The notes beneath the pieces were generated by a model. It was not told the DNA's origin. It saw only the letters and a list, made by a program, of their open reading frames with translations, and ran no database searches. A DNA stretch of 64,000 bases from Ostreococcus lucimarinus (taxonomy: Eukaryota): assembly GCA_000092065.1 (NCBI GenBank), contig CP000585.1; one strand, 5' to 3'. Below, one piece after another: positions 3,379-55,203 of this stretch. The position numbers and the translations under genes were made by a program. Position 1 is the first letter of the stretch. Every line of letters starts with the position of its first letter.

Positions 3379-3457
3379 TGTAGTCGTCGAATCCGCGCGA
3401 ATGCGTCATTGCGCGACTCCCCTCCCGCGTTCGCCGCGGGCGTTGCGTATCCGTGCG

Positions 3458-4441
3458 ATGGGGAAGAACGACGACGAACGCGGCATCGAGCGCCGCCGAA
3501 TCTTGCTCGTATTCGACCTCAACGGCTTGTTCGTCGAGCGCTTCCGAAACGGAAAATTCACCAGACCTCACGCGGTCGACGCCATCGAAACGGAGCGCGC
3601 CGTTGAGATCGAAGACGCTGTGCCGCGCGCCTCTTCTCCGGTGTCTTCGCGTACGCGCGGTGCGGCGACGCGACTCGAGGTCGTGGAGCCGGACTTTCGG
3701 GTTGGCCGTCACAACCATTACGTTAGGCGCTACACTGAAGAATTTTTGCGCTGGGCTCATGGGCGCTTCGACGTCGCTGTGTGGTCTTCTGCGATGGAAG
3801 TGAACACGACGGCGATGGTGGAAAATATATGGCCGTCCGATTTACGGTCGAAGATCGCGTTCGTGCTCAATCAAGACCACTGCGCGGTGGACGGCGTGAT
3901 GAAAACCAAAGGCGGCTCGAAAGGAACAAAGCCAAAGTTTCTGAAACCGCTGTCGGTGGTGTGGGAAAAGTTTGCGGATAGGTTCGATGCTATGAACACG
4001 TTACTCATCGACGACGACGCGTACAAGGCCATTCGCAACCCTGCGAATACGGCAATCCATCCGAAACCATTTTCTGTGGCGACGCGTGATTCCGACGACG
4101 GACTCAGCGCGAATGGCGCGCTCCGCAAATACCTCGCGAGACTTCTCGCGAGCGACTCGGTGCCCGACTTCGTCAAGGCAAATCGCTTCATCGACGGACA
4201 ACATGACGAAAGGTCAAATGAAGGATTTGTCGAAGATGTAGCAAAGAGCATTGAAACGGTTAACGCAAAACTCGCCGCGTTGCGCGTTCAAGAGAAGGTA
4301 TCACGGCAAAAGACGAAACCCGAGATGAGGATTCCACTTCCGAAATCGCTCATCATGAGGAACGCGGCGAAGACTCGAACGATCGCGCCCGTCGAGCCCG
4401 TCGTAACGCCGACGAGCGAACGAACACGGAGCACTAGGTAG
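3458..4441 (+). CDS. FCP1-homology/NIF-type (CPDc, HAD-like) phosphatase-domain protein with non-canonical motif I (DLNGL); tandem paralog 1
   Basis: ORF 3401..4441; ATG 3458 (MGKNDDERG) is chosen because it clears the upstream gene. LLVFDLNGLFV sits where DLDETL is expected; conserved WSSA...NT, TLLIDDDAYKAIRNPANTAIHPKPF and DSDD...DVR-like blocks typical of CTD-phosphatase-like domains. Confidence 0.6.
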   Translation: MGKNDDERGIERRRILLVFDLNGLFVERFRNGKFTRPHAVDAIETERAVEIEDAVPRASSPVSSRTRGAATRLEVVEPDFRVGRHNHYVRRYTEEFLRWAHGRFDVAVWSSAMEVNTTAMVENIWPSDLRSKIAFVLNQDHCAVDGVMKTKGGSKGTKPKFLKPLSVVWEKFADRFDAMNTLLIDDDAYKAIRNPANTAIHPKPFSVATRDSDDGLSANGALRKYLARLLASDSVPDFVKANRFIDGQHDERSNEGFVEDVAKSIETVNAKLAALRVQEKVSRQKTKPEMRIPLPKSLIMRNAAKTRTIAPVEPVVTPTSERTRSTR

Positions 4442-4527: not shown

Positions 4528-5739
4528 ATGCCCAAGAAGAAACAGGAAATCATCACCACGCGCGCGTCAAATCGGCTGAAAGCACGCGCCGCGGCGGCGC
4601 AGGAAGCCGCGGACGAGGCGATGCGCGCCGGCAAGCGTCCGGCAGTTGCTGCACGAAAGGCTGCGGTAAAGCTCGCCAAAGTCGCCGCCGATGCCGCAAA
4701 GTCGGTGACTGCGAGGGACAAGCGAGGGAATAAGCGCCTGAACGTCGTCGAAGCAGACGCAGCGGCCGAAGATGGCGCGAAAGAGGCGCGGGCTCCGCCG
4801 CCGCCACCGAAGAAGAATGCGAAAAAAAGCTCGGCGAACGCGCTCGTGGCGGCGTCGGGGGCCATCGGGAACACGCGCGCGGTGAGTGCGGTGAAACACG
4901 ACAAGCTTCTCGTCCTCGACCTTAACGGGCTGTTCATCGATCGTCGAATCAAGAGACACGTGAGGGAGGGCGACGACGACGTGGCGTCCGACGAAGAACT
5001 ACGCACTGAGTTGAGGCTGGACGTGGACTCGATCGAGGCGCCGACAAACTCGAAGGAAGTGACGGAGGACGCCAAAGTTGGCAACTTTTACGTGTACGAA
5101 CGTCCACACATGCGCGAGTTTATTGAATGGGTGCACACGCGGTTTGAAGTGGGCGTGTGGTCGAGCGCCAACTTTCGAAACACGACGAATTTGGTAGACT
5201 ACGTGTGGGGCGAGCACAAAAACAAAATCGCATTCGTTTGGGGGCAAGAAAGGTGCTCTGATGTTGGCATCGCGCCCTCATCGACGTCGACGCGCCCAAT
5301 GTTTCTCAAAGAATTGAAACACGTCTGGAAACTTAAAAGGAACACGGGGCTATCTCACTTCAACAAAACGAATACGCTTTTGATTGACGACTCGCCTTAC
5401 AAAGCCATTCGAAACCCCGCGCACACCGCCATCCATCCGTGCGGATTCACCACGGACGATCGTGAGTCGGACGATTTGTTGAGTGAACATGGCGCGCTTC
5501 GCCAATATCTCGAGCGATTGTCAGACGCAAAATCTGTCCCTGACTTCGTGCAGACCAACCCGTGGAATGGTGGGAAGATCAGCGAGCAGCACCAAAGGCA
5601 AATTGCACACGCACACGAAGCTTGCGCAATCGCGACTCAAAAGGCAAAGGCAAAGCTATTTGCTTTCAGGGATCCTTTGGAAATCGATTTGGACGAGGAG
5701 CTCGCCGACCCTTTGGAAATCGATTTGGACAATCTCTAG
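4528..5739 (+). CDS. FCP1-homology/NIF-type phosphatase-domain protein, tandem paralog 2 (DLNGL motif; Lys/Ala-rich N-terminus; C-terminal 12-aa direct repeat)
   Basis: 403-aa ORF starting MPKKKQ; LLVLDLNGLFIDR, WSSANFRNTT, TLLIDDSPYKAIRNPAHTAIHPCGF and ESDDLLSEHGALRQYLERL are collinear with paralog 1; C-terminus DPLEIDLDEELADPLEIDLDNL. Confidence 0.65.
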   Translation: MPKKKQEIITTRASNRLKARAAAAQEAADEAMRAGKRPAVAARKAAVKLAKVAADAAKSVTARDKRGNKRLNVVEADAAAEDGAKEARAPPPPPKKNAKKSSANALVAASGAIGNTRAVSAVKHDKLLVLDLNGLFIDRRIKRHVREGDDDVASDEELRTELRLDVDSIEAPTNSKEVTEDAKVGNFYVYERPHMREFIEWVHTRFEVGVWSSANFRNTTNLVDYVWGEHKNKIAFVWGQERCSDVGIAPSSTSTRPMFLKELKHVWKLKRNTGLSHFNKTNTLLIDDSPYKAIRNPAHTAIHPCGFTTDDRESDDLLSEHGALRQYLERLSDAKSVPDFVQTNPWNGGKISEQHQRQIAHAHEACAIATQKAKAKLFAFRDPLEIDLDEELADPLEIDLDNL

Positions 5740-5770
5740 CGTCCACTACAATCTACGAATCTAGCTAGCC

Positions 5771-8700
5771 CTAAGTAAGTTTTATTTGTGATAGCCTCAT
5801 CATTAGCTCTTCTTTTGGACGCGTTGGGATCGCACTCGCAGACCAGAAGCGAAGCATCGGTAAGCAGTTTGTCGAAATTGCATACTCGCCGACGCGCACC
5901 TCGCGCGGTTTTGGATCGATGGCGAAAGAAAACGCTGATGCGTGCGGTGGGCTCGACGAATCTTCGCCATCGTGATACCGATACTGCTTGCGACACTCGA
6001 ATATCATCTCATTCAAAGATGTCGCGTACGACACGGCTGTTCGTACCGCCGCGGAATCTTTGCCGCCGAGAACGTTTGAGGCGTGACCGCGCACGACGTG
6101 ACCGCCCGTGACAGCTCCCAGATCTCTTTCCTCGTCGCTACTCTTTATCAAACGCGACGTCACTCGACCATGCTTTTTCACTATCGCCAGGATCTCGTTC
6201 CGAACTTCTAGCGGCGTGAGCGCCATTCCGGCTTCGCCGGTTAGCCAACAGTCGGCTTGAGCCGTGCCGTCGTCTAAAATCACAGAAGCCTCGACTTCGA
6301 ACACACCCGGCCTCGAAGTTCCACGTGCTGAGGGGCGACACACGTCACATCCAGCCAAAACTGCGGGTAACCTGCGCTTGGTCGCGCCAGTGGCGGGGTT
6401 AACGCTCACGTGCATGAGTGATCCGGCGTCGCAACCGCACGCCGGACAGCACCAGCGAACCGTCAACATGGACACCGAAACGACTCGAGCACGCACCGCG
6501 AACGTTCGTCTACTGATTACCAGCCGCTCGCCTGAGTTGCGCATTTCTTCGTCAAAGAGTGCACGAATCGACTGCCTCATCGAAATATTCGTCAAAAGTG
6601 GCAGGTATTCAGATGTCGACGCGCATCGCTCGTGGATCTCAATCGTCGTCACGCCGGGATTCAGTTTGACGTATATGTTCATTGACGCCGCAGAAAGATG
6701 ACGCATCGCGCGATGAATCGTAATTTTTGCTCCTATGCCCACTCCGACGGGAAGGCTGAACGCGGACGTCTTACAGTACACGTCGACAACGTCGTGCGTC
6801 TCGACGTCTTGAACTTTGAATCTCGGCTCCCAGCCAAACTGTGATTGGGATTCTCTACGATTTTCACTCTCAAACCATTCTTCGGCGACGATGATACACC
6901 TAAATGACACAAGTTCTGGTGATGGTTGCCACGAATCTGCACTGCTGAGATGTTTCGCGAAGACTTTGCCCCACACTAGAACATCTCGCACGTCGCGCAC
7001 TTCGGGCGTCGCCGTCATCTCGTCGTCTTCATCGTCGGGCAACACGAAAGCGTCAACATCTGGACGCTCGTCGACGATAAACGTCGTCGCCCCGGAATTC
7101 AGAGTCGGGACGATCGGAATCAAATACGTCGTGCCGTGTCGAAGCAGACAGAACCAACTGTTCTTGGGTCCGAAAGAGACGGCGATTCTGCCGCTGCTTC
7201 GAGACTCGTGCGTCGTGTTCACTATGACGCCGTCCAACGTCTTTACGCCCCCTTGCGCCGTATAGACCTGAATGCTCGTACGTTGTTTCACTTCGGACGA
7301 CGCATCGATTGTGAAAGTCCACGTCGGGGCGACGATAGGATGAGAAAACTTGGAACTGGCGAGTCGCGGCGGGAGCAGCTGCGCGCCCTTCGTCGCCGAA
7401 TTGACGGCCACGTACATGGTGCCGTGGCTCTCTGATTTGGCGCTCGATGTCGGGTTTTGAATGACGACAATATTATCCGAGTCCACGCATAGACTCACGC
7501 GCACCGAAGCGTTGTGATGGTTCAACGCGTCGGCGCGAGAACCGACGTACGCGCCTTCGCACATGATTTCGCACTCCCTGAGCACGACGAGTTTGTTCAA
7601 CATGCTCGGCGCGGGCGCTCGTTTCAAGAATGATTCGATGCAAAGCTCCACAGCTCCTGATGCGTCGACGACGTGGAGTCGTCCATACATGCAGCGTAAT
7701 ATGCCCATGACGTAACGAGGTGGATCAACCTCGCCCAACCGCCCCGTCGCGCGAATGACGACTTTACCTTCGTTGCGAGTGCTGCCGCGCTTGCACGCGG
7801 CGGCGACTTTGTTTTCATCTTTCCACTTCTCAAATACGGCGTCTTTCAACGAGTTTATCGTCGGGACGTCGAAATTACTGATGGACTCCCCGCCCAGTGG
7901 CGTCGGAGCGAAAAACTCTCGGTAAACGTCTGCTCGTTTGAACGCCTTCGAGCCCAAGTCGTGCATCGCCAGTAACAGCGGCGCCGCGGTTTGTTCGTCG
8001 CTCGCTTCACCCGTCTTCCCGAGCGCGTACTCGGCGCTCGCGACATCGATCAGCCTAGAATCGTTCAGAATATCAAAGTTGGTCTCAAAAACTTCCCGCC
8101 ATGCCGCGGCGGCTTCGGCGTACACGAAATTCGACTGTTCCACGACGTACTTGAGCACGCGCGAAAACCGATTCGCCTTTTCGTCCGCGTTGTCTGAGTA
8201 CATCTCGGTCTCTCCTTCCGATGCGTTCTCCGTCGATGTGCGCTTTATCACAATTTGGGTGCGTAAATCAACACCGAGCGTCTCCACGACCCGCTCGTTG
8301 TATTCATCGACTCGCCAAACAGGATGCGCGTGCGTTACGACGACGCGCGCGCCGACGCGCAAACCGGAAACGACGATCTTTGAGTCGACGAGAGGAACGT
8401 GCGTAAACGTGAGTTTGACGTCCCGTCCTTGAGCGTCACGCAGGATCGCGTACGCACGACTAGTACGAACCGATACGACGTGTCCTTCAAACCTATCCAC
8501 CGTCGCCCCTGCGCCGCACATGGCGCACGCGCACGCGCAGCGACGCACTCTGCGCTCGCCAAAGGTGAGACTAACCACGTGAAACTCAGCCGTGGCGGAA
8601 AATGCGCGTAATTCGTGCGTCGCGTCGCCCTTGAATAACACGACTTTGCGTAAATTTCGCATCTCCACCCTCGAACCGACGCACTGTCTTAATATGCACT

Positions 8701-9430
8701 CCCATCGCGCCAGAAACTCTCCGTTAAAAATGATCGGAATCTGCGCGCCGGCGTCGTCTTCGTTTCTAAGCGCGCACATGAAGAACGTCGACTCACCGGT
8801 GGTGATGATCGGACTCACAGCCTCTAAAATACCTCGATGACACGCCCCTAATTTCCCGTTCAACGCTCGAGCGTCGTTCGCCACGCCATCCTCGTCTTCC
8901 AACGGTCCGCAAGCCAAGGACTCCTCGAATCCGTCGTCGTCGTACGCGCGTTCGACGCAGTTCGCCTCGACGACGACGGCGTCTCCATTCCTCGCGTCTG
9001 TCACGACGACGAAATCTCGCACGCAAACGACGCGTCCTAAATCATGTGCCTTCACGTCCACGCTCGCCAGGCGCACCTCCGCGCCGCCGTCTTCGTCTTT
9101 GTCTTTCGCCGTCCACGTCCACCCCCCGCTCGCGTCGTCTCTTCTTCGCAACCCGAGCGTCGCGCGCATGACGACGCCTTTGACGTCCGCGTTCGAGTTG
9201 GCACCGCGCAGTATCTCGCCCACCGTTCGCACGGCGTCGACGTCTCCGCGCGTCTTTCTCGTCGTCGTCGTCGTCGTCGTCGTCGCTTCGTCGTCGCCGC
9301 GCCTCCCACATCCGTCGCGTCGTCCGTCGCCTTCGCGCCGTCCCGTCTTTGACGCCCTCGGCGCGTCGTCGACTCGGTCGTCGTCCGCGTCGTCGCGCGG
9401 CGGCGGCGTCCCTCGCACCGCGATCGCCAT
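5771..9430 (-). CDS. Large OB-fold protein with C-terminal RPA70 DBD-C-like zinc ribbon; candidate CTC1 (CST complex) homolog
   Basis: ORF 5771..9478 (TTG at 9478 is not a start; first ATG 9430, MAIAVRG). 1219 aa. C-terminal CCPACGCD...CDVC four-Cys ribbon followed by VILDDGTAQADCWLTGEAGMAL resembles RPA70 DBD-C (C4 ribbon then L.L.DhTG...vTaFdE); the size matches plant CTC1 (~1270 aa). Assignment is by pattern only. Confidence 0.45.
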   Translation of the reverse strand: MAIAVRGTPPPRDDADDDRVDDAPRASKTGRREGDGRRDGCGRRGDDEATTTTTTTTRKTRGDVDAVRTVGEILRGANSNADVKGVVMRATLGLRRRDDASGGWTWTAKDKDEDGGAEVRLASVDVKAHDLGRVVCVRDFVVVTDARNGDAVVVEANCVERAYDDDGFEESLACGPLEDEDGVANDARALNGKLGACHRGILEAVSPIITTGESTFFMCALRNEDDAGAQIPIIFNGEFLARWECILRQCVGSRVEMRNLRKVVLFKGDATHELRAFSATAEFHVVSLTFGERRVRRCACACAMCGAGATVDRFEGHVVSVRTSRAYAILRDAQGRDVKLTFTHVPLVDSKIVVSGLRVGARVVVTHAHPVWRVDEYNERVVETLGVDLRTQIVIKRTSTENASEGETEMYSDNADEKANRFSRVLKYVVEQSNFVYAEAAAAWREVFETNFDILNDSRLIDVASAEYALGKTGEASDEQTAAPLLLAMHDLGSKAFKRADVYREFFAPTPLGGESISNFDVPTINSLKDAVFEKWKDENKVAAACKRGSTRNEGKVVIRATGRLGEVDPPRYVMGILRCMYGRLHVVDASGAVELCIESFLKRAPAPSMLNKLVVLRECEIMCEGAYVGSRADALNHHNASVRVSLCVDSDNIVVIQNPTSSAKSESHGTMYVAVNSATKGAQLLPPRLASSKFSHPIVAPTWTFTIDASSEVKQRTSIQVYTAQGGVKTLDGVIVNTTHESRSSGRIAVSFGPKNSWFCLLRHGTTYLIPIVPTLNSGATTFIVDERPDVDAFVLPDDEDDEMTATPEVRDVRDVLVWGKVFAKHLSSADSWQPSPELVSFRCIIVAEEWFESENRRESQSQFGWEPRFKVQDVETHDVVDVYCKTSAFSLPVGVGIGAKITIHRAMRHLSAASMNIYVKLNPGVTTIEIHERCASTSEYLPLLTNISMRQSIRALFDEEMRNSGERLVISRRTFAVRARVVSVSMLTVRWCCPACGCDAGSLMHVSVNPATGATKRRLPAVLAGCDVCRPSARGTSRPGVFEVEASVILDDGTAQADCWLTGEAGMALTPLEVRNEILAIVKKHGRVTSRLIKSSDEERDLGAVTGGHVVRGHASNVLGGKDSAAVRTAVSYATSLNEMIFECRKQYRYHDGEDSSSPPHASAFSFAIDPKPREVRVGEYAISTNCLPMLRFWSASAIPTRPKEELMMRLSQIKLT

Positions 9431-9497
9431 CGCGCGCGCCGTCGCGCGCGCCGTCGTCTGTCGCGTGCCCGGTTTCAAATCGAATCGACCGTCGCCT

Positions 9498-9506
9498 AAA
9501 CCCTAA
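9498..9506. promoter_or_regulatory. Telo-box (AAACCCTAA) within a two-unit interstitial telomere-like motif CCTAAACCCTAAAC in the CTC1-like/RFC3 bidirectional promoter
   Basis: Exact AAACCCTAA at 9498-9506, located in the 236-bp spacer between divergent start codons 9430 (-) and 9667 (+). Confidence 0.4.
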
Positions 9507-9666
9507 ACACCCGGATGTGCGGGCGCGCAATTTGAAATCGACAGACTCGGCGCGCCCGTCGCGGGCCGGCGCGATGCGCGGCCCGCGCGCCGCCGCACTC
9601 GAGGACGCGCGCGATCGTCGTCGACGTCGAACGTCGAAGAAAAAGCGAACCTCGAAGCCGCGCGCG

Positions 9667-10734
9667 ATGCTGTGGGTGGATAAACACCGCCCGCACGCCC
9701 TGGGCGAGTGCGACGCGATCAACACGGCGCAGGCGAAACATTTGAAGCTGCTGATCGCGAATGGGGACTGCCCGCACTTGTTCTTTTACGGGCCGTCGGG
9801 GGCGGGGAAGAAGACGCTCGCGCTCGGGGTTTTACGCGAAATCTTCGGACCGGGCGCGGAGAAGGTGAAGTTGGAGAACAAGACGTGGAAGATTGACCAA
9901 AACGATCGAAAGATTGAAGTCGAGTTGGCGATGATGTCGAGCAACCATCACTGCGAGATGAATCCGAGCGATTGCGGGAGCAAGGATCGGTACGTGGTGC
10001 AAGAAGTGATCAAAGAAATGGCGCGATCGAGACCGATCGACAGCGATGGGTGCGAGGGGTTTAAGGTTTTAGTGCTCACCGAAGTCGACCGGCTGTCGCG
10101 CGAGGCGCAGTATGGCTTGAGACGCACGATGGAAAAGTATAGCGCGTCGTGTCGGTTGTTTCTCATCGCCGAGAGACCGAGTCGAGTGATGGATGCGTTA
10201 CAATCGCGGTGCTTGCCCGTGCGAGTGCCCGGGCCGAGGGTTGAAGAGATTGAAAATTTGTTACACGACGTGGCGAAGAAGGAAAAGTTGGAGCTGCCTC
10301 CAGAGCTCGCGACGCGCGTCGCGACGGCCAGCGGACGGAACATGCGGCGGGCGTTATTGGCTTTGGAGACGTGCAGAGTCAACTCGTACCCGTTCAAACC
10401 TACACAAGCGGTGCAGACGACGGATTGGGAGTTGTACATTAACCAGATTGGCGCCGAGATCTTAGCTGAGCAGTCACCGGCGAGGCTGTTGCAAGTGCGA
10501 GGACGTCTGTACGAACTCATCGTCAACTGCATTCCGCCCGAAATAATCTTGCAGAACCTCGCCAAGGCTCTGATGCGTCGCGTTGACGTCGAAGTTAAGC
10601 ATCAAATCGTGTTTTGGGCCGCCCACTTTGATGTTCGCATGCAACGCGGATCCAAAGCCATCATGCACTTGGAAGCGTTCGTCGCGCAATTCATGGCGCT
10701 CTACAAGTCGCATTTGATCAAGGCGTTTGGCTAG
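9667..10734 (+). CDS. RFC3: Replication factor C small subunit (RFC3/38-kDa subunit type)
   Basis: 355 aa from MLWVDKHRPHAL; Walker A FYGPSGAGKKT, DEVD-like VLTEVDRL, SRC motif (QSRCLPVRV), RFC box architecture. Confidence 0.85.
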   Translation: MLWVDKHRPHALGECDAINTAQAKHLKLLIANGDCPHLFFYGPSGAGKKTLALGVLREIFGPGAEKVKLENKTWKIDQNDRKIEVELAMMSSNHHCEMNPSDCGSKDRYVVQEVIKEMARSRPIDSDGCEGFKVLVLTEVDRLSREAQYGLRRTMEKYSASCRLFLIAERPSRVMDALQSRCLPVRVPGPRVEEIENLLHDVAKKEKLELPPELATRVATASGRNMRRALLALETCRVNSYPFKPTQAVQTTDWELYINQIGAEILAEQSPARLLQVRGRLYELIVNCIPPEIILQNLAKALMRRVDVEVKHQIVFWAAHFDVRMQRGSKAIMHLEAFVAQFMALYKSHLIKAFG

Positions 10735-12952: not shown

Positions 12953-13820
12953 ATGTCCTGAATGTCCAGATGTTGTTTCATAACTTATTCTAGCGTCGTT
13001 AATCAATAATCAATGTTGCGTCGTAGACGTCGTGTGTATTTCTTTGAACGCGCGCGCGAACCACCGCTTCGCCGTCATGTATCCTCGTCCTCTTCGTACT
13101 CGAACACTCCCAAGGTGTCCATGGCATCTCTCATCGCTATTTTCGCTAAAGCCATCTGTATGCGCGACCCTGGATCGAGTCCGATCGCGCTCGTCATCGT
13201 TCTCACGCCTCGTCTCGCGACGTCCTCCGCCTCGCCTCGCCCGCGCGACGACGACCCGCCGCCGTAACCGCCTCGTCTGCCGCCACCGCCCGCGCCACCG
13301 CCGCCCGCGCCTCCTCGCGTTCCGCTCAAAAACTCTTCCAAAGCCGTCGACGCGCGTCCGTTTCCCGCGGACGTCGTCGACGCCGCGCTCCGCCCGCTCG
13401 CGACGACGCCGCGCGTCGCGCCTCGCGCGGGCGCCGTCGTCGCGCGCGTCGTCGCGCGCGTCGTCGCCGCCCCCCCCGCGCCGGCGCGCGACGCGGACGT
13501 CGCGACGACCATCGATCGTCGCGCCAGCGCGCGCGCGCGCGTCGCCCACGCCGACATCGGCCGCGGCACCGACGAGCCGTCGTCGTCGTCGTTCGAGTCG
13601 TTCGAGTCGTCGTGTCGCGCGGAAACGCGCGCGCGGCGCGCGCGTTTCCGTGACGGCCTCGGGGTTTAGGGTGTGTATCGACGGTACACCGATATCGATG
13701 TTTCACGCGCTTGAATGCGAGAGAAACGTCGCATTTAATTTAATTTCACGATCGATCGCGCGCCCCGCGACGCCCGCCCGCGACGCGCGCGCGCGTCCGT
13801 CTTTTCGTGACGCGCTCGAG

Positions 13821-14669
13821 ATGGTCAAGTTCCTCAAGGTACGTCGCGGACGATGCGGGACGATGCAAACGCATTCGTTACGCGCGCGCGTCGTTCGGGC
13901 GCACGCCGCGCGCGCGCGGACGGCGCCGACGCCGCGCGCGCGCGATCCGCGCCAGACCCTGAACGACGGGGACGCGCGCGAACGATCTTGGGACGACGGC
14001 CGCGCGGCGCGGCGCGCATCGATGCGGTCGACGCGAACGATGACTGACGCGGTTTTAATCGTATTCGCGCGCAGCCCGGTAAGGTTGTTGTCGTGCTTCA
14101 AGGCCGCTATGCGGGTAAGAAGGCTGTGATTGTGAAGAATGTGGACGATGGGTCTTCGGCTCATCCCTACGGGCACGCGCTCGTGTGCGGTCTGTCCACG
14201 ATCCCGCGCAAGGTACGTTTCGATCGCGAGCGTTATTTTCGATCGAACCCCGGCGCGACGAGCGCTCGAACGCGTTCGCGACGCGCTCAGGACGACGCGC
14301 GAGAACGTTGCATCCTCTGGTGAAAGCCCTAGACCTTTGGCGAGAGCCCGCGACGAGCTTGAAGACGAAAGACACTGACGAATTTTCGCATCTCCACGCG
14401 CGATTAAACACGCACAGGTGACGAAGAAGATGGATGAAAAGAAGCAAGCCAAGCGCTCGCGATGCAAGACGTTCATCAAGAACGTCAACTACTCTCACCT
14501 CATGCCGACGCGTTACACGCTCGACGTCGACCTCAAGAATGTCGTCACGTCCGACGCGTTGGACAACGCCACCAAGAAGGTTGCGGCGCAAAAGGAGGCG
14601 AAGAAGCTTCTCGAGGAGCGATTCAAGACTGGCAAGTCTCGTTGGTTCTTCACCCGTCTTGCCTTTTAA
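13821..14669 (+). CDS. RPL27: 60S ribosomal protein L27e (eL27), three exons: 13821..13838, 14075..14212, 14418..14669
   Basis: Exon 1 MVKFLK followed by GTACGT. Exon 2 [26 protein letters not shown]...PRK follows a CAG acceptor and is again followed by GTACGT. Exon 3 [39 protein letters not shown]...[14 protein letters not shown] follows CAG. 135 aa, collinear with human RPL27 (136 aa). Confidence 0.9.
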
Positions 14670-27378: not shown

Positions 27379-29241
27379 ATGGAACGCATCGCGAGCCTGG
27401 ACGCGACGAACGCGACGAACGCGACGACGACGGAGGCGACTGGCGATGGTGAACGAACGATGGTGATGCTGGTCGATCGATACGCGCCCGAGGACGCGAA
27501 CGCGCTGACGACGCCGACGAAAAAATTGGAGGCGGTGCGAGCGTGGCTCGAACGCGGCGGCGCGCTGTGCGCGAGCGGACCGCCGGGATGCGGGAAGGCG
27601 AGCGCGATCAAGTGCGTGGCGAAAGAGTTTGGATACGAAGTGAGCGAATGGAAAGCGCCGACGCCGACGCTGTGGAGAGAACACGCGCACGCGAGAGGGA
27701 ATGAAAATTATGGGATAGAGTACGCGAGCAAGGTGGACGAGTTCGCGGCGTACGTCGCGCGGGCGACCAAGTACGAACCGTTGTCGTTTTTAAAGCCCAC
27801 GACGAGGGGCGGAAACGGCGCGCGCGGCGCGCGAAATGGAAGTGCGAACGGGACGTCGACGGCGAAAGGAAAGTCGCGAGGCGTGGTGTTGATGGTGCGA
27901 GACATTCCGAGCAGCGACGAGAGCGGACGCGCGCGCGTGCTCGAGGCGATTCGAACGTTAACCACGGCGCGGAACGGACCGCCGTGTGCGGTCGTGCTCA
28001 CGGAAGAAGACGATGGGGGTGGTGGCGGTGGATCGAGCAGTCGAGGAGAGATACTCGCCCGGGACGTGAGAGCGGTGATGGAGCAAGCGGGGGCGACGTG
28101 TATTAATTTCAACGCCACGACGGCGGCGGCGATGACAAAGACGTTGCTGCGCGTGCGCGAGGCTGAGGGATTTGTCATCCCGGATTCGGAAATCGACGCC
28201 ATCGTGCAAGCATCACACGGTGATTTGCGCAGCGCCCTGGGAGCGCTCGAGTTCTGGTGCATGGGAAAGACAAAGCCAGATGCGGCGAAAAAGCCGGCGA
28301 AAAAGGCGCCCAAGCGCAAGCGCGGCGAACCCAAGGAGGCGCCTTCGGAAGCGGCCGTCGCGCGCGCCAAGATGAGCTCCCGCGATCAAGGCCTGGGATT
28401 ATTTCACGCCCTCGGCAAGTTTCTTTACAACAAACGCGAAACCACAGAGGTTATGGAAATTAAAGGCTTTGAAACCATGGACGAATCGTTGCGGCGACCG
28501 CCGGCTCGGTACGATCCCGAGGAAGTCCTCTCGCGCTCTGGCATAGGCGCCGAAACCGCGGTGGGTTTTCTGTTCGAAAACTTTCCAGATTTCATAGATT
28601 CTAGATGCATAGATTGGGTGGCGGCCGGAACGAGATACTTATCGGACGCCGCGATATTGGCTCGAGGAGGCGTTTCGACGTACGGCTTTCGTCGCGGACG
28701 CGAGGACGTGGGCGACGAAGGCGACGGCGCGATCGACCCCAACGTCCTCGGCGAGTACGCCGCCGGTTCGGTGGCGACGCGTGGAGTTTTATTCTCTTCC
28801 AAACGATCCTCCGCGGGCTTTCTCCCCATGCGTGGACCGAGCGCGATGAAAAATGATCGCGCCGCGGCTTCGAACCGCGAGGAAGTCCGCGCCGTCGTCG
28901 CCGCCGCGCACGACGGCGACTTCTCCGTCGGCGGCACGACGACCGCCGCCGCGATCGAGACCCTTCCCGCGTTGCGTTTGATCTCCAGCGCTTCCTCTGC
29001 AGGCGCGGCTTTGGTTCCTTTCCTTCCCGCTCGTTGGCGTTCCGCTCGGGAGGACGACGCCGCGTTTCGCCGTCGCGTCGCCGCCCTCCCTCTTCCCGCC
29101 GCCGCGCCTCTTCCCGCCGCGCTCGCCTCGGGCGTCGCCTTGGCGATCGATCGCGGCGCCAAGGGTGCGCACGCGCCTCCGTTAACCCTGGACGACATCG
29201 ACGATTTAGAGGACGACATCGAGTCCGATTCCGACCCCTGA
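27379..29241 (+). CDS. RAD17: Checkpoint clamp-loader subunit RAD17/Rad24 (AAA+)
   Basis: Walker A CASGPPGCGKAS, sensor SHGDLRSALGALEF, RAD17 signature GLFHALGKFLYNKRE; 620 aa. Confidence 0.8.
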   Translation: MERIASLDATNATNATTTEATGDGERTMVMLVDRYAPEDANALTTPTKKLEAVRAWLERGGALCASGPPGCGKASAIKCVAKEFGYEVSEWKAPTPTLWREHAHARGNENYGIEYASKVDEFAAYVARATKYEPLSFLKPTTRGGNGARGARNGSANGTSTAKGKSRGVVLMVRDIPSSDESGRARVLEAIRTLTTARNGPPCAVVLTEEDDGGGGGGSSSRGEILARDVRAVMEQAGATCINFNATTAAAMTKTLLRVREAEGFVIPDSEIDAIVQASHGDLRSALGALEFWCMGKTKPDAAKKPAKKAPKRKRGEPKEAPSEAAVARAKMSSRDQGLGLFHALGKFLYNKRETTEVMEIKGFETMDESLRRPPARYDPEEVLSRSGIGAETAVGFLFENFPDFIDSRCIDWVAAGTRYLSDAAILARGGVSTYGFRRGREDVGDEGDGAIDPNVLGEYAAGSVATRGVLFSSKRSSAGFLPMRGPSAMKNDRAAASNREEVRAVVAAAHDGDFSVGGTTTAAAIETLPALRLISSASSAGAALVPFLPARWRSAREDDAAFRRRVAALPLPAAAPLPAALASGVALAIDRGAKGAHAPPLTLDDIDDLEDDIESDSDP

Positions 29242-42019: not shown

Positions 42020-43708
42020 ATGACGGCGCCGAGCGTGAGCAACGGCACGACGCGTTCGCTGATTTGGTTTCGCAAAGCGCTGCGCGTCCACGATAATCCC
42101 GCTCTCGCCGCGGGCATCGCGCGCGCGAAGAGCGCGCAACCGGTGTTCGTGCTCGATCCGTGGTTCTGTAAGCCCTCGCGGGTGGGGGCGAATCGCATGC
42201 GGTTCTTGTTGCAATCGCTGCGCGACTTGGACGCGACGCTGCGAGAACGCGGCAGTTCGCTGCTGGTGCTGCACGGCGAACCGCGAGTGGTGTTGCCGCG
42301 AGCGTGCAAGACGTGGAAGGTTGATTTGGTGACGTGGGAACACGATATCGAACCGTATGCGAAAATGAGAGACACCGCGGTGCGAGGCGCGCTGGAGCGC
42401 GCGGGAGTAGAGTGCGCGTCGTCGAGCGGACACACGCTGTACGACGTGGAGGAGATGTTGGCGAAGTGTCATGGGAAACCACCGACGACGTATTCGCAGT
42501 TTTTGAAGATTGTAGATAAAATGGGTGCACCTGCGGCCGCTTTGGATGCGCCGAAGGCGATGCCGGCGCCGTTCACGGGGACAGCAGAGGAGACGAAGGA
42601 ATTAGTCGCGGGAGTGGCGGATGCGTACGGGATCCCCACTTTGGAGGAGCTCGGTTACGAAGCCATGCATGACGACGAAGGTTTTCAAGCGATCGGAGGT
42701 GAAACCGAAGGCTTGAGACGTCTACGCAGACAACTGTCGCGCACGGAATGGGTGCACACGTTTCAAAAGCCAGATACAAATCCCACGACGCTTTTTCATG
42801 CCTTGGGCGCGAAAAAGCCAAAGCCAAAGAGTCCGTTCGAAATCGCAGCGCGAGACGCGGGAAGCAAAAATGACGCAACAAACACTGCAGCGAATAGTGA
42901 TATGCTGATGACACCGTCCACGACAGCGCTGAGTCCGTACATGAAATTCGGTTGCGTGTCGCCGCGAGTGTTTTATCACGAGCTCAACGCCGTGCTCGCA
43001 AAGTTTGAGGGCAAAGGTCAACCTTCGCAACCGCCGGTGAGTCTCATGGGACAACTGATGTGGCGCGAATTCTACTATCTCGTCGGCGCGGGGACGCCGA
43101 ATTTCGATAAGATGGAAGGAAATCCAATCTGCAGGCAAATTCCTTGGAACAAGGATCGTGAGCTCTTCGCGGCTTGGGAGAACGCGCAAACCGGGTTCCC
43201 TTGGATCGACGCCGCGATGACCCAGCTTCGCCTCGAGGGATGGATCCATCACTTGGCTCGACACGCCGTGGCGTGCTTCCTGACCCGTGGTGATCTATTC
43301 GTGCACTGGGAGTGGGGCAGAGACACGTTCGATCGCGACCTCGTCGACGCCGATTGGGCGCTGAACAACGGCAACTGGATGTGGCTCTCGTGTTCGTGTT
43401 TCTTTTACCAATATTTCCGAGTGTACGGTCCGCACTCGTTCGCGAAAAAGTACGACAAGGACGGCGCGTACGTCAAGCACTACCTCCCCGTGCTGAAGAA
43501 TATGCCCGCCAAGTACGTGTACGAACCTTGGCTCGCCCCTCTCGACGTGCAGAAGAAAGCCGGTTGCGTCGTCGGCGTCGATTATCCCGCTCCGATCGTC
43601 GACCACGCCACGGCGAGCAAGGCGTGCATAGATAAGATCGCCACCGCTTACGCCGCTCACAAGGACGCCACCGCGGTGGCTGGGAAGAAGCGTAAAGCCG
43701 GCGAATAA
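42020..43708 (+). CDS. (6-4) photolyase / animal-type cryptochrome (CPF family)
   Basis: LIWFRKALRVHDNPAL, TGFPWIDAAMTQL (class-specific 6-4/animal CRY motif), WMWLSCS, FAD-binding region; 562 aa. Confidence 0.85.
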   Translation: MTAPSVSNGTTRSLIWFRKALRVHDNPALAAGIARAKSAQPVFVLDPWFCKPSRVGANRMRFLLQSLRDLDATLRERGSSLLVLHGEPRVVLPRACKTWKVDLVTWEHDIEPYAKMRDTAVRGALERAGVECASSSGHTLYDVEEMLAKCHGKPPTTYSQFLKIVDKMGAPAAALDAPKAMPAPFTGTAEETKELVAGVADAYGIPTLEELGYEAMHDDEGFQAIGGETEGLRRLRRQLSRTEWVHTFQKPDTNPTTLFHALGAKKPKPKSPFEIAARDAGSKNDATNTAANSDMLMTPSTTALSPYMKFGCVSPRVFYHELNAVLAKFEGKGQPSQPPVSLMGQLMWREFYYLVGAGTPNFDKMEGNPICRQIPWNKDRELFAAWENAQTGFPWIDAAMTQLRLEGWIHHLARHAVACFLTRGDLFVHWEWGRDTFDRDLVDADWALNNGNWMWLSCSCFFYQYFRVYGPHSFAKKYDKDGAYVKHYLPVLKNMPAKYVYEPWLAPLDVQKKAGCVVGVDYPAPIVDHATASKACIDKIATAYAAHKDATAVAGKKRKAGE

Positions 43709-50198: not shown

Positions 50199-52058
50199 TT
50201 ACGCGCAGGCGGATGAATCCGCCGTGACGGTGTCGAACGCGGCTTCGTCGTCTTGCGCAGCTAATCGTTCCAGCGCTTCGATCGCGCTCGTACCGAAACC
50301 TTTCGGTTCACGGCTGGAGACGGAATCAACCACGAAGTCAAGCGTCACGATAGCCACTGCCGGTGTCGGCAAGCGCTTCGCGAACGGAACGTAAACGTCG
50401 GCGTACGGCGCTCGATGCGCGGACTTGTTGGGAGCCATATCGACGACGACGACGACGGGAGAGTTCCTCGGGGACGAGGGCGACAATGAATCGCCGATGT
50501 CTTCGATTCGCGTCACCACGGCGCCATCGGCTCGAGCGAATTGCATGTTCATCTCGAGCTGATTCGAGTCGCGAAATTTGCCGAGATAGACGAAGTGCCA
50601 GGTCGAGAAAACTTTTGCGCCACCGTTCTCTCGCGCTCGTTTCGGTCCACCGAGATTTCCGCACGAGTCGCCTTGGATCTCGAACGCATCTTCATCCACG
50701 CAGCGTTGCTGTTCCAAACACGATTTCACCCACGCGCTGCTCAAGATCCAGCACCCTTGGATGAGCGCTTCGTAAAATTTGGCGCTCTTCTTTCGTAAAA
50801 CCATGCTTCCGGAATCAACCTTGCCTTTGCCGAAGACGACGTGCGTCGTTTGAGGCGAAAACATCGACTCATAGACGAAGTCAAACTGCTTGCAGAACTT
50901 TTCCAATTCCTTCTTTTCGGCGTCAGACAAGAGAGAGCCGCACACGCGAGTCTCGCGCGTCGTCTTGAGAAGTTCGTAGCTGGAATCCGAAGGATCGATG
51001 GAAACGAGCGACTTTTGACGCTTTGTCGCAGACTTGCCGTTCGTCGGCGCTTGTGCGCGCTTCAAACTGGGCGCTCTCGTAGCCGGTCGCTGCGCGGGCA
51101 GAAGCGCGAGAGGAAGAGTCGAGTGCGCCGGGCACGAAATTGAAAAGTGCTCGCCGTCGTACGTCGTTCCCTGAACCAGTCGCGCGCACCAAATATGATA
51201 CGATTTCTTGCATCTCGATTCGCTGCACCCCGACGGAGCACCCACTTTCTTGCAGTAGGCACACTTCAGACTTTTCGCTCTCCGGACCTCCGCGCAAACG
51301 TTCGTCAAGCCTCCGTCGACTGAGCTCACGACGAGCGGCGCCCAAAGCGCGCACGTCGTGTGACAGTGTTCCACGACCGTTTTCCTCGAAATCTTCTCCT
51401 CGAAACGTTCGACGCTTTCCCCAACCTCGCTCCCACGCTTGCAAAACGCGCACGGATGGCGACCCTGGACGGCAGCGTTCGGATCGATCACCGCTCCCGT
51501 CCACGGCGCGCGCGTCTCCCTCTCCACCGTCTCCTCCGTCGCCGTCGACGCTTCTTCTAATTCCCCCACCAACTCCTCAAACGCCCCGTTCCCACGTCGC
51601 CCACCTCCGTTTTCATCTCCAAACGCATGCGGTAGCGTTGGAAGCTTTCGCATGTTCGCCATGATCTCCTTCAACTGCGACACGCTCGTTCTTCGCTGCG
51701 GCGCTCGCGCGTTGTGCTTCCTCAGCTGCGTCGCCGGAATCTGTGACCCATACGGCACTTCCGTCTCCATCACCGACGCCACCGCCGCCAAAACGTTCGT
51801 ATACGCGCTCACAATCTTCTCAAACCGCTCATCCTTCCGCGACTCTCGCTTCGTGCACGGCGCTCTGCACGTCGGGCACGGCTGTTTCCTATCGAACAAC
51901 GTCTTCGCGCACGCCGCGCAAAAATAATGCGAGCACGCCAGCTTCGTCGGCTTTTTCGGCAGGCTCAGGCACACCGCGCAGCACAAGTGTTGTCCGAGCG
52001 CGTCCAGCGACGTCGTCAGCGTCGTTTTCGCCGTCTCCAGGCACGCGTCCAGCGTCAT
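50199..52058 (-). CDS. BRCA1/BARD1-like protein: N-terminal RING finger, extended PHD-like zinc finger, tandem C-terminal BRCT domains
   Basis: C3HC4 RING CAVCLSLPKKPTKLACSHYFCAACAKTLFDRKQPCPTCRAPC; ePHD-like CAFCKRG...HCHTTCALWAP...CAYCKKVGAPSGCSESRCKKSYHIWCA; BRCT blocks (FYEALIQGCWILSSAWVKSC..., VFSTWHFVYLGKF). This RING+PHD+2xBRCT architecture is the one known for plant BRCA1/BARD1. Confidence 0.7.
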   Translation of the reverse strand: MTLDACLETAKTTLTTSLDALGQHLCCAVCLSLPKKPTKLACSHYFCAACAKTLFDRKQPCPTCRAPCTKRESRKDERFEKIVSAYTNVLAAVASVMETEVPYGSQIPATQLRKHNARAPQRRTSVSQLKEIMANMRKLPTLPHAFGDENGGGRRGNGAFEELVGELEEASTATEETVERETRAPWTGAVIDPNAAVQGRHPCAFCKRGSEVGESVERFEEKISRKTVVEHCHTTCALWAPLVVSSVDGGLTNVCAEVRRAKSLKCAYCKKVGAPSGCSESRCKKSYHIWCARLVQGTTYDGEHFSISCPAHSTLPLALLPAQRPATRAPSLKRAQAPTNGKSATKRQKSLVSIDPSDSSYELLKTTRETRVCGSLLSDAEKKELEKFCKQFDFVYESMFSPQTTHVVFGKGKVDSGSMVLRKKSAKFYEALIQGCWILSSAWVKSCLEQQRCVDEDAFEIQGDSCGNLGGPKRARENGGAKVFSTWHFVYLGKFRDSNQLEMNMQFARADGAVVTRIEDIGDSLSPSSPRNSPVVVVVDMAPNKSAHRAPYADVYVPFAKRLPTPAVAIVTLDFVVDSVSSREPKGFGTSAIEALERLAAQDDEAAFDTVTADSSACA

Positions 52059-52956: not shown

Positions 52957-55203
52957 CTATGCTTCTATTAGGTGCGTGGCTTCGTCGACCGCGCTGTCTT
53001 CCTCGCGCAGCTCGCCCCAAGACGTGCCGACGGCGAGTTTGATTGGCGTCGGCACGGCGAGTTTGATCGCGTTCTCCATGACGTTCTTCACCGCTCGCGC
53101 GCACTCTGGGACGTAGTCTTCGTCGACTTCGAACAAAAGTTCGTCGTGGATCTGTGCGACGAGAGTGACGCGCTTTTTATTCACTGATCCCGGCGCGACG
53201 TCGTTTGCAAATCTTCCCGCGCCGACGGCGCTCGTCCATCGCAGCATCGCCGTCTTCATCATGTCCGCGGCTGTTCCTTGAATGATCGTATTCACAGCTT
53301 GCCTTTGCGCCTCGCTGCGTTCGCTGAAGACTTTGGAGTGGATTTTCGGCAACGCGCGATGTCGACCGGACATCGGAAGCGTCACCGCTCCGGTTTGTTC
53401 CGCGCGTTGCAACACGCGAGTTATCCATTGATTCACCTTTGGAAACGCTCGATGAAACGCGGCGATGTATCCCTGCGCCTCGCTCTTCGGTACGCCGAGT
53501 TTTTCGGCCAAACCCGTGGCGTGTTGGCCGTACACGATTCCGTACGCCGTGCGCTTGGCGATGTCACGCGTGCTCTTTTCCGCTGGCGCGTCGAGCGGTA
53601 AGCCTTTACCGGCGTTCCAAATCGCCACGAACACGTCGCCTTTCGCCTGTCGTAACAGCGATATGAGGCGATCATCGCCGCTCAAGTGTGCCAAAACTCG
53701 CAGTTCAATTTGACTGTAATCCGCCGCGATGAATGTGCGCCCGGTGGGTGCGACGAAGCAGTTTCGCATCGTTCCCCGACCTACTTGCTGAATGTTAGGA
53801 TGACTCGAGGACAATCTCCCGGTCGCCGTCTTTGTGTTGTTCCATTGCGTGTGAATTCTGGCGCGACCGTCGGCGGCGATGACGGCTGATTTGTCGTAAT
53901 TGTCGCACATCGCTCTTTCTTTCAACGCGCCTCGATGATTCAACACGATTTGTGCGAAATGATGATGCTTCACTAGCGACTGCAGGACTTCGACACTCGT
54001 CGATAAATGGCTCGACTTGGAACCTTTCATCGCGTGCGCGCTCGGCGTCGGTAGCTTGAGCTTGTTATACAAGACGTCGGCGACTTGCTGCGCGCTCGCC
54101 AAATTGATGTCGACTCCGATGCACTTTTGGGCCTCGCGCTCAAGCTCTTCGACGCGACGATTCGCGGCCCGTCTCTGCTCGTCCGCGCGCGTCCGATCGA
54201 ACCCAACACCGTGGTGTTGAAGCACGCCGAGAGCGACTGCGACTTTGGCTTCGACGTCTCGCGCGAGCGGGGCGTCGCCTCGAGGGACGAACGAAAGCGC
54301 CGCGGTCAAGTCGGATTGAAAACACCCGAGCGCGTCGCTCCATGATGCATCTTTACACGCGCCCGTGTCCGCGATGCCCCCATCGTAGGCGCGATCGGGA
54401 TTGGCCAACCACGCGTCGATGCGACAATCGACGACGCGCGTCGTCGACGCGTCCACGCCAGTCACGCCCGCGTCCATCGCCGCGTGAACGATGTCTTGCG
54501 CGTGATACGTCACAACTCGACACTTCGCAAAAATCTTTTCTAAACGCGCTCTCGTCGTCGCGCGGTTCGCGGCGCGCAAAAAAAACGCCTCTCCCGTCGA
54601 CGCCATCACCGCGCCGAAACCGAGCACCGCTCGATCGACGGCGGACGCGTCGTCGTCGTCGCCATCGTCAGCATCACCACCGACCGCCGAAAGAGTCGCG
54701 AAGCGTTTCGCCGCCTTTTTCGCCGCCTTCTTTTCGTTCGCATCGACGTCACGAAAATTCGAACTGTACCCGAACCAAATCTCCAAGTCTCCCGCCACGC
54801 GCGCGACGTCTCTTCGCAGCACGCCGAGCGCGCACGTCGCGTCCTCGCCGCCATCCTCCAACGCTCGATCGAACGCCTCTCCGCTGTGGTCCGCATCGCA
54901 CCACGCCGCATTTTTCTCGAAATCAATCCCCTCCATCGCGTCTCCTCGTCCGGTCTCGAACGCCAACGCCATCGCCTCCGCCTCCGCGCTCGGTTTCGCC
55001 TTCGCCTTCGCCTTCGCCTTCGCCTTCGCGCGTCGCTTCTCGCCGCCGCCGCGCGTCGTCGTCGTCGTCGTCGTCGCCGGGCGTTTCCGCGTCGCCGACG
55101 CGTCGGCGTCGACGAACACCGGCGCGACGGTCGTCGTCGTCGTCGTTTCCGTCGCGTCGCCGGGCGGCGGTTTGGTTTTCCATCGCCATCGAAACGTCGC
55201 CAT
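52957..55203 (-). CDS. Family A DNA polymerase, Pol theta/Pol nu-like polymerase domain with degenerate N-terminal exonuclease-like region, no helicase domain
   Basis: Motif A DYSQIELRVLAHLS, motif B RDIAKRTAYGIVYG, QAVNTIIQGTAADMMK, motif C VAQIHDELLFEV, GTSWGELRE - blocks that closely track the POLQ polymerase domain; N-terminal Lys/Ala and poly-Thr low complexity. Confidence 0.8.
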   Translation of the reverse strand: MATFRWRWKTKPPPGDATETTTTTTVAPVFVDADASATRKRPATTTTTTTRGGGEKRRAKAKAKAKAKAKPSAEAEAMALAFETGRGDAMEGIDFEKNAAWCDADHSGEAFDRALEDGGEDATCALGVLRRDVARVAGDLEIWFGYSSNFRDVDANEKKAAKKAAKRFATLSAVGGDADDGDDDDASAVDRAVLGFGAVMASTGEAFFLRAANRATTRARLEKIFAKCRVVTYHAQDIVHAAMDAGVTGVDASTTRVVDCRIDAWLANPDRAYDGGIADTGACKDASWSDALGCFQSDLTAALSFVPRGDAPLARDVEAKVAVALGVLQHHGVGFDRTRADEQRRAANRRVEELEREAQKCIGVDINLASAQQVADVLYNKLKLPTPSAHAMKGSKSSHLSTSVEVLQSLVKHHHFAQIVLNHRGALKERAMCDNYDKSAVIAADGRARIHTQWNNTKTATGRLSSSHPNIQQVGRGTMRNCFVAPTGRTFIAADYSQIELRVLAHLSGDDRLISLLRQAKGDVFVAIWNAGKGLPLDAPAEKSTRDIAKRTAYGIVYGQHATGLAEKLGVPKSEAQGYIAAFHRAFPKVNQWITRVLQRAEQTGAVTLPMSGRHRALPKIHSKVFSERSEAQRQAVNTIIQGTAADMMKTAMLRWTSAVGAGRFANDVAPGSVNKKRVTLVAQIHDELLFEVDEDYVPECARAVKNVMENAIKLAVPTPIKLAVGTSWGELREEDSAVDEATHLIEA

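Follow-up and report, generated by a model that had tools for sequence, protein, structure and literature searches.

The element described here has its closest counterpart in the telo box of plant promoters. This motif, AAACCCTA, is concentrated between −50 and +50 with respect to the start of transcription and is known from ribosomal-protein, EF1alpha and cycling-cell promoters of Arabidopsis and rice (PMC3022908). The plant telo box does not activate transcription alone. Usually it is found together with site II (TGGGCY) or TEF boxes, and it works in genes of cycling cells in synergy with the site II motifs, which were first characterised in the PCNA promoter (PMC3022908). Its origin has been modelled as the insertion of telomere units at breaks by telomerase or by repair (PMC3022908, Figure 8). 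A recent survey of telo-box enrichment in green plants sampled Chlamydomonas as its sole chlorophyte (bioRxiv 10.64898/2026.09.09.750301). In the present study, we analysed a stretch of 64,000 nucleotides that starts at the left chromosome end of the chlorophyte Ostreococcus lucimarinus CCE9901 (GenBank assembly GCA_000092065.1, contig CP000585.1; hereafter the window). In this window, a two-unit interstitial telomere repeat that includes a telo box lies in the short spacer between the divergent genes for CTC1, a component of the CST complex, which serves telomeres and replication, and RFC3, a subunit of replication factor C. The repeat is fixed in O. lucimarinus and specific to that lineage, and a regulatory role is unproven.

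The repeat, CCTAAACCCTAAAC, occupies positions 9495–9508 on the plus strand and consists of exactly two perfect units. It contains the canonical plant-type telo box AAACCCTAA (9498–9506, plus strand), which corresponds to 1.3 telomere units, and it is identical in sequence to the organism's own telomere unit. Both the sequence and the coordinates given in the original prediction were exact. The spacer between the two divergent start codons is likewise 236 bp long, as had been claimed (9431–9666), and reaches from the ATG of a 1219-aa open reading frame on the minus strand (complement of 9428–9430) to the RFC3 ATG at 9667. This presumed bidirectional promoter has a G+C content of 70%, with an A/T-rich core at approximately 9470–9545 in which the telo box is located. 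From the repeat it is 65 bp to the ATG of CTC1 and 159 bp to that of RFC3, a position compatible with a core-promoter element. Its orientation is that of the terminal telomere array, and toward CTC1 it reads TTTAGGGTTTAGG. That array, (CCCTAAA) repeated about 28.5 times at positions 1–200 on the plus strand, marks the left chromosome end and is 9.3 kb away, which makes the site subtelomeric.

Outside the terminal array, the 64 kb contain a single exact copy of the 9-mer and a single copy of the 7-mer core AACCCTA/TAGGGTT. To this extent, the statement that no other telomere-like motif occurs in the window apart from the terminus holds. It does not extend to near-variants, of which four were present: TTTAGGGTGT at 13665–13674, AAGCCCTA at 14324–14331, TTTAGGGC at 46541 and AGCCCTAA at 5767. 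The number of one-mismatch matches in the window (4) was not above the shuffle count. For the exact 9-mer, shuffles of the window gave an expectation of 0.09, and models of zeroth to second order derived from the window gave 0.055–0.21 per window, or 11–43 per 13.2-Mb genome. These values correspond to one chance occurrence per 0.3–1.2 Mb on both strands, or roughly one per 0.6–2.3 Mb per strand. The previously stated rate of one per 130 kb per strand was about 5–18 fold too frequent, and the motif is rarer than stated there. At genome scale, a lone 9-mer is nevertheless unremarkable; the full 14-mer, in comparison, is expected at most 0.05 times per genome (~13 Mb).

The same locus is seen in hundreds of marine metagenome assemblies. 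The motif was present in all 17 O. lucimarinus copies compared, 16 of which came from independently assembled environmental contigs. Of these contigs, 10 were retrieved via the RFC3 protein and 6 in one metagenome scan with a flank-gap-flank DNA pattern. The latter pattern was also used to look for haplotypes with zero, one or three units; none was found, and the same 12 nt lay between the flanks in all 16 contigs. A single-nucleotide polymorphism within the 14-mer was seen in one copy only (C>A at 9496, contig L006), and it falls outside the 9-mer. Over 3 kb, the 17 sequences displayed 16 variable sites, and 7 of these were inside the 236-bp spacer (3% of spacer sites). The two-unit repeat is fixed in the species.

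Because the 14-mer is expected so rarely and all 17 copies carry it, the motif is neither a chance match nor an artefact. In favour of a chance match, an assembly artefact or the remnant of a former chromosome end or fusion speak the orientation of the repeat, shared with the left terminal array, and its subtelomeric location. In addition to the rarity of the 14-mer and the agreement of the 16 independent assemblies, no degenerate repeats surround the motif, whose flanks are unrelated sequence save for ACACCC. The relic variant was further rejected on synteny: CTC1 and RFC3 are adjacent in O. tauri and three other lineages, and this arrangement is older than the motif. The explanation as a whole is effectively refuted, and we assign it hardly any probability.

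The loci behind this last argument were RFC3 loci of six other Ostreococcus-like lineages with RFC3 proteins 82–89% identical to that of the window, namely O. tauri (contigs L011/12) and the lineages represented by contigs L013/14, L015/16, L017, L019 and L020/21. CTC1 and RFC3 were divergent neighbours in four of the six (O. tauri, L013/14, L019 and L020/21). In all six, AACCCTA/TAGGGTT was absent from the spacer and from the 420–450 bp upstream of RFC3, so the motif is specific to the O. lucimarinus lineage. Plant telo boxes are kept in orthologous promoters more often than expected by chance, a supporting feature (PMC2576244); the telo core was kept in none of the six lineages. Telo-box gene sets turn over rapidly between plant species (bioRxiv 10.64898/2026.09.09.750301), and for this reason its absence from related lineages argues only weakly against a function. 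No alignment of the orthologous spacers is possible, and an unbiased search for shared k-mers yielded only GACGACG low complexity and an A/T-rich TTTNAAA island. Since the spacers cannot be aligned, an insertion, an origin by point mutation and the loss of an ancestral motif are indistinguishable. In three lineages, a TTTSAAA palindrome precedes the RFC3 ATG by 128–151 bp; it may be the real core-promoter element.

The divergent pair was not seen at the other two loci. In L017, the upstream neighbour of RFC3 is a 115-aa gene fragment at the contig end. In L015/16 (JGI 3300021963, ENA ERZ27296343 contigs), the block of RFC3 and its downstream neighbour is inverted relative to CTC1 and these two genes, CTC1 and RFC3, no longer share a promoter, showing that the divergent pairing of CTC1 and RFC3 is not obligatory.

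Within the O. lucimarinus spacer, the telo box is bracketed by two copies of a 22-nt direct repeat (family D2; 73% identity, 58-bp spacing) that end in TTTSAAATCGA. The left copy (9462–9483, plus strand) ends in TTTCAAATCGA and the right copy (9520–9541, plus strand) in TTTGAAATCGA. TTTSAAATCGA was not enriched in the window. Among the seven orthologous spacers, including that of the window, MSA, CCAAT and TATA elements were also sought, and none was found in the window spacer. A scan for bacterial-type promoters and terminators was empty, which is irrelevant for this locus. The 1.8-kb contig L028, which underlies an N-terminally extended RFC3 model (P0001), was considered as a transcript that would give the transcription start and was rejected, the contig being genomic.

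The explanation that we tentatively favour is a lineage-specific short interstitial telomere repeat that is bound by a telomere-repeat Myb factor and whose effect on the promoter is auxiliary at most. Its origin would be a break in open promoter chromatin, at which telomerase added, or repair copied in, one or two telomere units after the split from the other sampled Ostreococcus lineages. What is present today is a perfect duplex TTTAGGG site in every copy of the species. This site would be occupied by a duplex telomere-repeat Myb protein of the TRFL type. O. lucimarinus is reported to encode two class-I TRFL Myb-extension proteins (PMC3400083), which are candidate readers of duplex TTTAGGG; they are OlTRFL1 (XP_001421395.1) and OlTRFL2 (XP_001416857.1). 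Occupancy would modulate one or both of the divergent promoters in an auxiliary and position-dependent manner and would not constitute a stand-alone S-phase switch. The most plausible target is CTC1, because its ATG is only 65 bp away. The site would work like the plant telo box in a weak sense only, as a telomere-identical sequence read by a telomere-type Myb protein at a promoter.

Support for the existence of such a reader came from a second gene of the window. The few telomere-like motifs in the fetched loci cluster at one gene, that of ribosomal protein RPL27e (exons at 13821–13838, 14075–14212 and 14418–14669). On the sense strand of its intron 2, AA[A/G]CCCTA was present in every one of the eight taxa in which the intron exists, namely O. 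lucimarinus, O. tauri, four other Ostreococcus lineages, Micromonas commoda and M. pusilla. The sites are located at 14324–14331 in the window, at ~10204 in L011, in L013, at ~2013 in L015, at ~5505 in L017, at ~10261 in L020, at 3535 in L029 and at 3557 in L031. They always lie 78–109 nt from the 3' splice site, in introns that are otherwise unalignable. AA[A/G]CCCTA was the sole 8-mer with one two-fold degenerate position common to all eight introns. Any motif common to all eight arose in 1 of 300 Markov resamplings, and the product of the per-intron chance probabilities was 6e-20. Bathycoccus has lost RPL27e intron 2, and its fetched locus contained no AA[A/G]CCCTA. No Rfam match reached the gathering threshold in the window, so the RPL27e intron holds no annotated small nucleolar RNA; the isolated footprint of 8–9 bp looks more like a protein-binding site than like a structured RNA.

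Related motifs were also found upstream of the RPL27e ATG, in several Ostreococcus lineages in G-strand orientation. In the window, TTTAGGGTGT (13665–13674) lies 156 bp upstream, and O. tauri carries TTTAGGGTTTAG (L011, 9516–9527) 193 bp upstream. L017 has TAGGGTTTA (~4822) 153 bp upstream, and L020 has TAGGGCTT (~9593) upstream. In M. pusilla, AAGCCCTA is located 98 bp upstream of the start codon. Judged from these comparisons, the telo-box-like motif AA[A/G]CCCTA is under selection in one gene, RPL27e, of this algal order, and the Mamiellales probably possess a reader for motifs of this type. The intron motif suggests a telo-box-like element in a chlorophyte ribosomal-protein gene, and it is this class of genes for which telo boxes are typical in plants. 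Given this selection at RPL27e, a perfect site in a 236-bp promoter would be unlikely to go unread, although the argument is not decisive.

Several observations weigh against a bound and functional site at CTC1/RFC3, beginning with the absence of the telo core from the six orthologous RFC3 upstream regions. Neither site II (TGGGCY) nor the TEF box (ARGGRYANNNNNGT) was found on either strand of the 236-bp spacer, and the E2F consensus (TTTSSCGS) was found in none of the seven orthologous spacers. The telo core was absent from the Rad17-like, family-A DNA polymerase, BARD1-like, Bud23-like methyltransferase and photolyase genes of the window. At RPL27e, half of the eight intron motifs have the form AAGCCCTA, which differs from the telomere sequence, and hence the reader of these motifs need not be a telomere-binding protein. 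The population data lack power here: about 0.27 variable sites were expected in the 9-mer and 0 were seen, which says nothing about constraint. The plant telo-box reader TRB, which combines a Myb with an H1/H5 domain, is reported to arise in streptophytes and has been reported only from them (PMC10167121).

Several of these observations also suit a neutral origin. A short interstitial telomeric sequence could have been inserted by telomerase or repair at a promoter break and fixed by drift, with no effect on expression even if it is bound incidentally. We regard this as nearly as probable as the explanation favoured above. It is consistent with the restriction of the motif to one species among the seven lineages compared, with the spacer being free of partner motifs, and with the subtelomeric position. 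The occurrence of only one exact copy in 64 kb that hold several replication, repair and ribosome genes also fits, and the telomerase-insertion model has been published for plants (PMC3022908). Against neutrality, the 14-mer is perfect although 3% of the spacer sites are polymorphic, which implies that it either arose recently or is constrained, and at RPL27e the order offers a clear case of selected telo-like motifs; neither point is decisive.

The original prediction had regarded the placement of the motif between the two genes as consistent with their co-regulation in S phase. In its full form, this explanation sees in the motif a conserved telo box of the plant type through which RFC3 and CTC1 would be co-regulated in S phase, as are cycling-cell genes of Arabidopsis, within a regulon for replication and translation. 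The motif is indeed identical to the plant telo box and is situated in the 5' flank, both genes are linked to replication, and RPL27e carries conserved telo-like boxes. The cycling-cell genes in which the plant telo box acts, moreover, combine it with site II motifs (PMC3022908). It is exactly this defining association with site II or TEF boxes that the algal spacer does not have, and the motif was not kept in orthologous promoters. The seven spacers yielded no E2F consensus, and the Rad17-like, family-A polymerase and BARD1-like genes carry no telo core. The reported restriction of TRB to streptophytes (PMC10167121) and the inability of the plant telo box to activate transcription alone (PMC3022908) count against it as well. 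TCP factors, too, are not known outside the streptophytes. We consider co-regulation of this kind distinctly improbable.

Compared with the plant telo box, the algal motif is identical in sequence, equals the telomere unit of its own organism, lies in a 5' flank near start codons and, in contrast to long interstitial telomere repeats, comprises one to two units; RPL27e, a ribosomal-protein gene, bears a related motif in the same order. It differs in having no site II or TEF partner, in not being kept in orthologous promoters and in its host, a chlorophyte, a group in which TRB readers are not known (PMC10167121). It cannot count as a proven part of the plant module formed by telo box, site II and TRB. 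The published model of short interstitial telomeric sequences (PMC3022908) is matched by its two perfect units, the lack of degenerate flanks, the lineage-specificity and the location in open promoter DNA. It departs from that model in that the insertion event is not reconstructable, the orthologous spacers being unalignable, and in showing no copy-number polymorphism among 17 sequences. A third analogy is offered by the Rap1/rpg boxes of yeast, where telomere-binding proteins also serve as promoter factors (PMC3022908): the algal site, too, would be a telomere-like promoter site of growth-related genes read by a protein that binds telomere duplex, with an auxiliary and not an autonomous effect. 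Unlike those boxes, it is found at a telomere-maintenance and replication gene pair instead of a ribosomal-protein gene.

By itself, the site adds one further case to a known kind of element, the short interstitial telomere motif in a promoter. Should it be functional, it would, together with the RPL27e boxes, point to telo-box-type regulation in chlorophytes without TRB, and so either to an earlier origin of such regulation or to convergence of the kind seen with yeast Rap1. The telomere repeat, 65 bp upstream of where CTC1 translation starts, would then be a simple feedback route from telomere state to CST expression. A broader proposal, which is speculative and in our estimate unlikely, is that the Mamiellophyceae, as chlorophytes without TRB, may already use AA[A/G]CCCTA boxes to regulate genes, with a Myb protein of the telomere type, for instance TRFL, as their reader. 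Within this set, the boxes of RPL27e would be ancient and the CTC1/RFC3 site a recent recruit that couples the availability of a telomere-binding protein to expression of a CST subunit. If true, this would establish a telomere-to-CST feedback loop acting on a subunit that controls telomere C-strand synthesis, and would date the link between telo box and ribosomal-protein genes back to the base of the green lineage or earlier. Because O. tauri is transformable and has no motif at this locus, the question is directly and cheaply testable.

The two genes flanking the spacer were examined for their identity, and both labels in the original prediction turned out to be right. RFC3 (9667–10734, plus strand, 355 aa) is identical to XP_001417641.1. 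It matched PF22534 at 2.2e-27 as well as PF21960 and PF13177, that is, an AAA+ clamp-loader core plus an RFC3-type C-terminal domain, and it is 57–61% identical to plant RFC3. Sources label it 'replication factor C subunit 3/5'; its identity as RFC3 is unambiguous. The 1219-aa gene on the other side (5771–9430, minus strand) is the CTC1 orthologue, encoding the large subunit of the CST complex. The protein of the window aligned with the Pfam CTC1 profile PF15489 at E=0.0024, below the cut-off, in a colinear fashion (residues 847–999 against profile positions 849–985). Its orthologue P0127, 53% identical, scored 32.2 bits on PF15491 (plant CTC1_2) and passes the gathering score of 29.4. One member of the 90% UniRef cluster of the protein is named 'CST complex subunit CTC1', and in fold comparison its C-terminal OB-fold array was nearer to solved CTC1 than to RPA70. 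PDB sequence searches, run with the single sequence and with a profile, returned only spurious matches to antibody light chains. STN1 (ABO95476) and TEN1 (ABO98342) have been reported in O. lucimarinus, and for this species as well as for Micromonas, Chlamydomonas and Chlorella the same 2012 survey stated that CTC1 'could not be discerned' (PMC3400083). The CTC1 assignment fills this gap.

The window as a whole has a G+C content of ~60% and densely packed genes. Its origin from O. lucimarinus CCE9901 is borne out by the RFC3 and RPL27 proteins, which are identical to XP_001417641.1 and XP_001417642.1, respectively. Along with CTC1 and RFC3, the 64 kb hold Rad17-like, photolyase/cryptochrome, BARD1/BRCA1-like RING-PHD-BRCT and family-A DNA polymerase genes, listed for this set at 27379–29241 (plus strand), 42020–43708 (plus strand), 50199–52058 (minus strand) and 52957–55203 (minus strand). 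In O. tauri (L011), the Rad17-like gene is two genes away from CTC1. One metagenome contig (ENA ERZ10646601 contig_3434, 76,992 bp; L001 and L002) contains two copies of the subtelomeric region with RFC3, inverted relative to each other. The doubling reflects either a fold-back error of the assembly at the chromosome end or a true inverted duplication of the subtelomere. Two tandem NIF/CTD-phosphatase-like paralogues adjoin the chromosome end (3401–4441 and 4528–5739, plus strand), and their copy number and arrangement vary among lineages.
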